DNA from: Octopus vulgaris
Taxonomy: Eukaryota
DNA length: 64,000 nt
NCBI GenBank assembly: GCA_951406725.2
Contig: OX597821.1
Location: 60,264,001-60,328,000, forward strand
Direction of reading: 5' to 3'
Made by a program: the position numbers and the translations under genes. Shown one piece after another: positions 35,750 to 36,260 of the stretch; the first letter of the stretch is position 1; each line of letters opens with the position of its first letter. A model generated the notes under the pieces. The model ran no database searches. It had not been told where the DNA came from and saw only the letters and a list, made by a program, of their open reading frames with translations.

Positions 35750-35876
35750 CCTTACAGCTGTTTCAGCCTATGGCTAAAAGTAGTTAATTTTATTTTTATT
35801 ACCTATAGGTGTCAACATAGTTGTAGGCATTTAAAAATAGGGTACTTATATATATAACCATTGGCCTCATCAGAGG
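35750..35876 (-). ncRNA. Type-I hammerhead ribozyme motif (palindromic stem III, long stem II)
   Basis: Minus strand: CCT-CTGATGA-GGCCAATGGTTA...TAGCCATAGGCT-GAAA-CAGCTG-TA-AGG. Intact core, stem II about 11 bp, palindromic CAGCTG, GUA cleavage triplet, 3-bp stem I. Confidence 0.75.
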
Positions 35877-36214
35877 TTATAAGGAACTTTAAAAATATTA
35901 ATATTAATACATTAAACATGATACACATATGTAATATATATAAAAAATATGAACAAATATCCATATAGACATATATATATGTAATAAGAAATATTGAATT
36001 TCTAAATCTCTCGTAGAGACCTGTACGGTGGTGGGGCGATAGAATGGTTGTATACTGTCAATCTAACAAGAACGTGACAGTAGGGGGTACACCACCGTTG
36101 TATAGCCCTAGGAGGCATCGAACGCCTCCTGACAGCTTCGACACATTTTTTTCCCCTGTGTCCTTATATACATATACGAAGGGGAGACGAACACCCCCAA
36201 CTGCCAGAACTGCA

Positions 36215-36260
36215 TCTAGGGACACCGTGTTTCAGGATCATTGTCCTTCATCGGCCTAGA
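36215..36260 (-). ncRNA. Type-I hammerhead ribozyme motif (compact, U4C core variant)
   Basis: Minus strand: TCTAGG-CCGATGA-AGGA-CAATGA-TCCT-GAAA-CACGGTG-TC-CCTAGA. 6-bp stem I, 4-bp stem II, short quasi-palindromic stem III, GUC cleavage triplet. Confidence 0.8.

Follow-up and report, generated by a model that had tools for sequence, protein, structure and literature searches.

Two different hammerhead ribozymes lie on the same (minus) strand of Octopus vulgaris DNA, 380 bases apart and within one insert that is bounded by (TA)n, and this arrangement raises the question whether they belong to a single mobile unit or to separate elements that share a microsatellite. The window analysed here is the whole stretch of 64 kb, which is AT-rich animal DNA with many microsatellites and repeats. 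The ribozyme of the right half is referred to as HH1 and that of the left half as HH2, and the locus comprises the following features:

35347-35557, plus strand: multicopy repeat ending in (TA)n, flanking the insert
35540-35557, 35971-35980 and 36487-36524: (TA)n runs, the short run at 35971-35980 lying between the left and right units
35558-36486: insert of about 930 bp, between (TA)n runs at the ends of two convergent multicopy repeats
35558-35935, minus strand: left unit, about 380 nt, GC 0.24, 5' boundary approximate (35935-35970)
35750-35876, minus strand: HH2, type I hammerhead, Penelope-type
35981-36345, minus strand: right unit, about 365 nt, GC 0.46, highly self-paired, 5' boundary approximate
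36157-36322, minus strand: imperfect rod of about 70 bp, extending stem I of HH1 by about 60 bp
36215-36260, minus strand: HH1, type I hammerhead, canonical (Schistosoma-like), U4C variant
36346-36486: low-complexity TA-rich spacer of unassigned origin
36487-36629, minus strand: (TA)19 and the end of the second multicopy repeat, flanking the insert

The two flanking repeats are presumably convergent octopus SINEs, and the outer (TA)n runs their tails. TA tails of this kind are repeated landing sites, so that the co-location of two elements between them needs no functional link. As the preliminary description had stated, the insert is bounded by (TA)n, is divided by a short TA run near 35971 and holds no credible open reading frame: the three insert frames that were tested, one of them in part only, gave no Pfam match. 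No reverse transcriptase plus GIY-YIG reading frame is present among the 137 peptides of the window, and at the locus itself a tandem repeat, a target-site duplication and a Penelope reading frame were all not found. Within the 64-kb window there is likewise no second copy of the insert or of either half, and the outer 87 nt of the spacer are devoid of homology to either unit. Two ways of treating the insert as a larger structure were rejected. The flanks that would have to form the terminal inverted repeats of a single element rank 136 among 1830 flank pairs, and a 10-nt repeat spaced at 369 bp, which might have marked the outer spacer as an earlier, now decayed tandem unit, gave p 0.19-1.0 in each of 12 tests. 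In a word search of sequencing runs, part of the stretch was present in 20 of 24 rows among the matches listed (10 studies, four organism labels), the best of these having 0.53 of the 91 words; no RNA run among them holds the stretch, and six rows guessed to be RNA stand at 0.18-0.21. Beside the insert, 36660-37444 (minus strand) contains a broken LINE reverse-transcriptase remnant with a PHD-like domain downstream; the Pfam matches to RVT_1 and PHD are both below cut-off, and by those tests the remnant is not Penelope. Minisatellites with periods of 66 bp and 34 bp are found at 45683-45939 and 58123-58333, and the scans detected no hammerhead motifs in them.

Both hammerhead motifs are real and beyond chance. 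A type I descriptor finds three loci in the 64 kb, which are HH1 (C3 at 36254), HH2 (C3 at 35873) and a locus at 60087, whereas 150 locally shuffled windows contain a mean of 0.087 descriptor loci per window. Loci of the grade of HH1 were seen in none of the 150 shuffles, and of the grade of HH2 in one. The claim of two co-oriented type I hammerheads at these minus-strand places is thus borne out by the sequence and the descriptor. Rfam reported no hammerhead in five scans, including scans of 76-151-nt stretches at E<=10, and HH1 and HH2 therefore rest on the descriptor. Descriptor scans of the opposite strand of the insert found no hammerhead, and a pattern scan of viral contigs gave no match for HH1 or HH2. 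Metagenome matches to the HH1 pattern were dismissed as chance in five of five cases, which lie in DNA of 61-64% GC and lack the stems; a degenerate match at 53803 and a 9-nt match near 54690 were also judged to be chance on inspection.

In HH1, stem I consists of six Watson-Crick pairs (36260-36255 with 36220-36215), the core starts with C3 at 36254 and reads CCGATGA, and a 4-bp stem II with a 6-nt loop is followed by GAAA and by a stem III of three pairs with a 3-nt loop. The predicted cut follows GTC (36223-36221), between 36221 and 36220. All core residues C3, G5, A6, G8, A9 and G12-A14 are present together with the A15.1-U16.1 pair, H17 and the three stems, and so are the 6-bp helix I, the 4-bp helix II and the tertiary-contact letters of loops 1 and 2. 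Two positions deviate from the consensus: position 4 is C instead of U, and the base of stem II is A10.1-U11.1 instead of G10.1-C11.1. U4C is a natural variant for which a considerably lowered in vitro activity is reported (PMC3088659), and an A-U pair at 10.1-11.1 is present in a published shrimp Penelope motif (PMC4209133 supplement). In the computed ensemble stems I and II form with near certainty, unlike stem III, and the active fold lies 5.4 kcal/mol above the minimum.

These properties resemble those of the Sm-alpha ribozyme of Schistosoma mansoni, which has the same 6-bp stem I, 4-bp stem II, loop-1 U and UAC. Loop 2 has six bases of the form C...A in both ribozymes, CAAUGA in HH1 and CAAAUA in Schistosoma (PMC2632901). 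The Schistosoma loops are given as CAAAUA and UCCA:GUAC, with contacts made by loop-1 U1, loop-1 C8 and the last A of loop 2 (PMC2632901). All of these contact residues are present in HH1, with the U directly after stem I and UAC directly before it, and the agreement over the six loop letters compared with the published Schistosoma loops has a chance probability of about 3e-4. HH1 differs from Sm-alpha in C4, in the A-U pair at the base of stem II and in a predicted 1x3 internal loop that is followed by the long rod. A further contrast with Sm-alpha is that ARAGORN detected 0 tRNA genes in the window, which argues against a tRNA-derived head. A B-box-like word is located at 36123-36115, and by eye no well-spaced A box accompanies it. 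HH1 is therefore of the canonical tertiary-contact type, and the label of a minimal hammerhead, under which its C4 had gone unflagged, does not suit it.

The rod around HH1 contains, over both arms and stem I, 46 Watson-Crick pairs, 5 G-U pairs, 13 mismatches and 4 gaps. Its wobbles number 5 G-U versus 2 A-C on the minus strand, and its folding z is -4.4 on the minus and -2.1 on the plus strand. For the right unit as a whole (360 nt), the folding z is -6.36 and none of 100 shuffles folds as well; compared by strand, z is -6.2 on the minus versus -3.7 on the plus strand. The right unit thereby has the properties of a monomer of metazoan non-LTR retrozymes, being non-coding, within 150-450 nt, below 50% GC and self-paired. 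As in these retrozymes, a canonical type I hammerhead stands at the end of a long stem I in a unit of about 365 nt. It differs from them in being single, in its U4C and A10.1-U11.1 and in its position in (TA)n without a visible target-site duplication. The single copy at the locus is not part of a tandem array, and for this reason the right unit does not qualify as an active retrozyme; it is likely a retrozyme-like solo monomer. Solo monomers of retrozymes have been described (Li et al. 2026, 10.64898/2026.07.22.740005), and mussel retrozymes are reported as repeats of 350-390 bp (Cervera and de la Pena 2020, PMC7229834). The mussel ribozymes reportedly lack most tertiary-contact letters, whereas HH1 has them.

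Some further details of the right unit are recorded as observations. By eye, 36108-36025 (minus strand) may form an H-type pseudoknot that encloses a hairpin, with possible pairing of 36108-36101 with 36041-36034 (7 of 8 pairs) and of 36098-36090 with 36033-36025 (9 bp). The word TATACAAC occurs twice, at 36104 and 36054. The segment 36203-36192 (minus strand) in the 3' arm of the rod has a second complementary partner downstream, at 36089-36078, and this partner could refold the RNA once cleavage removes the 5' arm. An 11-nt TA-rich word is present at both edges of the unit (36319-36309 and 35985-35975, minus strand, 334-nt spacing), which may point to a circular template with redundant ends or may have arisen by chance in such TA-rich sequence. 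At the 5' edge, 36341-36323 (minus strand) forms a perfect 7-bp hairpin with a 5-nt loop.

HH2 is organised differently. A 3-bp stem I precedes a core that starts with C3 at 35873 and reads CTGATGA, followed by a 102-nt stem II domain with a proximal helix of 12 positions, by GAAA and by a stem III made of the self-complementary ACAGCTGT, an 8-nt palindrome that closes just a 2-nt loop. The cut is predicted after GTA (35755-35753), between 35753 and 35752. We take a GTAAG that overlaps the cut site (35757-35752, minus strand) and is followed by AT-rich DNA to be splice-donor-like; Penelope pLTRs can contain an intron. The folding z of HH2 is -2.7, but in the monomer stems I and III are predicted to pair with a probability of about 0, and the active fold lies 11 kcal/mol above the minimum. 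The left unit (376 nt) has folding z values of -0.2 on the minus and -2.2 on the plus strand and so carries no minus-strand signal.

The short helix I, the palindromic helix III fit for a homodimer and the U/AU-rich flanks of HH2 are shared with the pseudo-LTR hammerheads of Penelope-like elements that carry an endonuclease, namely with their variants in which helix III is small and palindromic (Cervera and de la Pena 2014, PMC4209133). Differences from these are the G10.1-U11.1 wobble in place of G-C, the lack of an unpaired base after the core, between 9 and 10.1, and the lack of an adjoining reading frame; some published Penelope rows likewise have no bulge (PMC4209133 supplement). In addition, the 102-nt helix II domain is longer than that in any row of a 56-row published Penelope alignment. 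The left unit is likely a pseudo-LTR remnant of a (TA)n-targeting Penelope-like element, and it has the (TA)n target in common with the clades Neptune, Hydra and Naiad (Craig et al. 2021, PMC8557442), as has a third element of the window. Because no reading frame lies beside the left unit, its Penelope clade cannot be named. Five short motif strings of HH1 and HH2 gave no hammerhead match in the supplement of Craig et al. (PMC8557442). Octopus Naiads were rejected as the parent, the motif strings being absent from that supplement and the one 3' end shown being unlike by eye; Naiads reportedly have no canonical hammerheads. Hammerheads of the Penelope kind reportedly need dimers and cut poorly (PMC6765202), dimer cleavage being attributed to Lunse et al. 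in a review, and one such hammerhead is reported to depend on the protein of its element (PMC11167929).

The third descriptor locus belongs to another insert of the window:

59958-60438: third element, (TA)n-bounded insert of 481 bp, an inverted pair of decayed Penelope-type hammerhead copies
60090-60044, minus strand, and about 60139-60185, plus strand: hammerheads of the third element

It is formed by a 345-bp inverted repeat with arms that are 80% identical and a hammerhead in each of them. Arm 1 has kept the core and lost two CpGs in stem III, arm 2 has kept stem III and has a broken core, and the plus arm continues for about 140 unique bases. The third element is flanked by the same two kinds of multicopy repeat as the insert, and TA tails in this region thus took hammerhead elements at more than one site. 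Its inverted-copy build is a textbook one for Penelope-like elements, in the same (TA)n context; several of their clades have been reported to target (TA)n and to leave inverted, 5'-truncated copies (PMC8557442), and nearby hammerheads on opposite strands have been described for Penelope-like elements as well. The inverted build was seen only in the third element and not in the left unit.

The three hammerhead units are also connected by short words at their 3' ends. For this comparison, 45-nt flanks of TA arrays were used, of which 42 out of 96 were kept and 54 were dropped as repeats or microsatellite-like. Words of 9 nt or longer, in register to within 5 nt, connect 9 of the 861 flank pairs, and all three pairs among the 3' ends of the three hammerhead units belong to these 9. 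The shared words are TCCATTTTCTT for the left unit and the third element, TTTCTTATT for the left and right units and CTACGAGAG for the right unit and the third element. Two of them are placed as follows:

35566-35576, minus strand: TCCATTTTCTT, near the 3' end of the left unit and common to both arms of the third element
36008-36016, minus strand: CTACGAGAG, 27 nt ahead of (TA)n, in the loop of a hairpin

The first word occurs four times in the window versus 0.12 expected, three of the four at ends of hammerhead units, where two are the arms of one insert. The second occurs twice versus 0.07 expected, its other copy being in the third element, 30 nt ahead of (TA)n. These words are short (9-11 nt) and were found after the fact, with alignment p values of 0.011, 0.029 and 0.054, and a joint chance of 8e-7 overstates their significance because they overlap in TTTCTT. 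The hairpin with an ACGA loop is absent from the left unit and weak in the third element, with -3.3 and -0.8 kcal/mol for the whole ends. We regard the shared words as good support for two ends and a shared machinery, and as a candidate start signal for reverse transcription they provide a lead. One Penelope enzyme has been shown to start inside a stem-loop, which gives a tail of 30-40 bp (PMC11167929). As a separate observation, the fourth copy of TCCATTTTCTT is located at 56582, in a non-repetitive stretch of 455 bp (56444-56898) between (TA)n runs that contains no hammerhead.

We favour, with moderate confidence, the explanation that the insert records two separate insertions in one (TA)n tract, a retrozyme-like monomer on the right and a Penelope terminal-repeat remnant on the left. 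GC content is 0.46 in the right versus 0.24 in the left half, with a step from 0.12-0.32 to 0.46-0.54 near 36000; the folding z is -6.2 versus -0.2; and the 3' ends of the two halves abut (TA)n separately. Homology between the halves reached the 95th percentile of shuffles and was rejected as not significant. Two independent elements in one microsatellite had been offered in the preliminary description as the alternative, and this proves to be the better reading, with the refinement that the right half resembles a monomer of a retrozyme more than a plain Penelope end. A Penelope-like element that targets (TA)n and is encoded elsewhere would have supplied the reverse transcriptase and the GIY-YIG endonuclease by which both halves were copied. 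Such an enzyme would nick AT-rich DNA and start cDNA inside the RNA near a 3' signal, and two target-primed insertions into one TA tract would produce the observed order. In the parent family of the right unit, HH1 would cut tandem transcripts to monomers and a host ligase would close the circles, whereas the solo copy, with its U4C, would perform at most one slow cut of a read-through transcript. For cleavage HH2 would need either a second copy, with which to form a homodimer, or the help of protein, and at this site it is probably inert. Some findings count against two insertions. The window contains three hammerhead-like loci and 48 TA arrays, so that two loci in one tract are themselves uncommon, and neither half has a second copy in the window. 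The active-fold cost of HH1, its A10.1-U11.1 pair and its C4 also weigh against this explanation.

Alternatively, both insertions could be truncated pseudo-LTR ends of autonomous Penelope-like families, and the right half would then not derive from a tandem circle-maker. The words that the 3' end of the right unit shares with the Penelope-type third element, and its lack of a tandem arrangement here, agree with this possibility, as does the report that most Penelope insertions are 5'-truncated single ends (10.64898/2026.07.22.740005). Canonical hammerheads, moreover, are reported in plant Penelope-like elements and also in the Hydra clade (PMC8557442). We nonetheless regard it as unlikely, considering that HH1 has stems of 6 bp and 4 bp and tertiary-contact letters, features reported to be mostly missing from the hammerheads of metazoan Penelope elements (PMC6155905, PMC7761336), and that the size, GC content and strong self-pairing of the right unit match those of retrozyme monomers (PMC7229834).

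Also unlikely is a single insertion in which a Penelope reverse transcriptase jumped between templates and left a one-off, non-propagating chimera of two families. The halves are adjacent, lie on the same strand and have 3' words in common, and Penelope copies are reported to tend to land in or beside earlier copies (PMC6765202). However, about 45 nt of TA-like DNA with (TA)5 separate the halves, as at the outer ends, and the left unit has 0 CpG in 376 nt while the right unit has 15, which hints at different ages, with low GC as a confounding factor.

The main proposal of the preliminary description, a composite element with two unrelated ribozymes that would set free a 468-nt RNA for circularisation, is very improbable on the present evidence as an element that also spreads as a unit. 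The ribozymes are co-oriented, the distance from cut to cut is indeed 468 nt and within the size range of retrozyme monomers, and the 468-mer folds better than shuffles (z -4.3). Yet this signal comes from the right half, and in the predicted structure the 5' end is folded back on itself. From the fold, stem I of a type I dimer should be built across the two copies, with its 5' strand from one and its 3' strand from the partner. Upon swapping stem I, the heterodimer has 0/0 pairs versus 6/6 and 3/3 for the homodimers of HH1 and HH2, the 5' stem-I strands ending in AGG in HH1 and CCU in HH2; contiguous pairs in the dimer stem III are 8 for HH2 with HH2, 4 for HH1 with HH1 and 3 for the mixed dimer. 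With 0 bp between mixed stem-I strands no heterodimer is formed, and HH2, the stem III of which is near-unpaired in the monomer, remains unaided by HH1. The junction of the circle would set the CCU of HH2 against the CCU of HH1 and hence contain no hammerhead, so that any RNA copied from the circle would have a non-functional ribozyme and could not re-cut. One retrozyme-like unit built from two unrelated ribozymes is thus not sustained; the motifs and their connection to Penelope elements and retrozymes hold. Moreover, both cores have non-consensus letters, and eight of nine predicted retrozyme dimers were uncleaved in a published test (10.64898/2026.07.22.740005). Retrozyme circles are closed in vitro by RtcB and not by the ribozyme (PMC7229834), which makes a one-off circle chemically possible; a host ligase could close it if both cuts took place, HH2 being without a partner in cis.

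That the right unit is an integrated, reverse-transcribed copy of an infectious viroid-like circular RNA is hardly credible, because its long imperfect rod, length of about 360 nt and strong folding on both strands (z -6.2 and -3.7) are set against an opposite strand without a hammerhead, a Schistosoma-type fold of the genomic metazoan kind and an HH1 pattern that matches no viral contig and, in metagenomes, matched by chance in five of five cases.

As interpreted here, the locus is ordinary: the right and left units belong to the already known kinds of retrozyme monomer and Penelope end, which are present in thousands in many invertebrate genomes (PMC7229834). Penelope-like elements account for 6.83% of one octopus assembly (PMC13282606), and the accessible text and supplement of this repeat annotation do not mention ribozymes. 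Literature searches on hammerheads and Penelope in cephalopods and octopus brought up no description of cephalopod retrozymes, although supplements could hold one. Which enzyme moves animal retrozymes, and by which RNA signal, is an open question (PMC7761336); the hijack of a Penelope reverse transcriptase by retrozymes has already been proposed in print, and according to a 2020 review no conserved motif that points to a helper element is known. A 3' hairpin and an end word common to a canonical-hammerhead unit and a Penelope-type end represent a concrete candidate for such a signal. Tentatively, and as a possibility that we would not expect to hold, the right unit may represent an undescribed retrozyme family that shares its 3' signal with (TA)n-targeting Penelope-like elements, consisting of an ACGA-loop hairpin about 30 nt before the end and then TTTCTT. 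If so, a retrozyme with a canonical hammerhead would use this signal in cis to hijack the Penelope reverse transcriptase and, if the joint reading is true, HH2 would mark a Penelope family with a helix II of 100 nt that standard descriptors miss.
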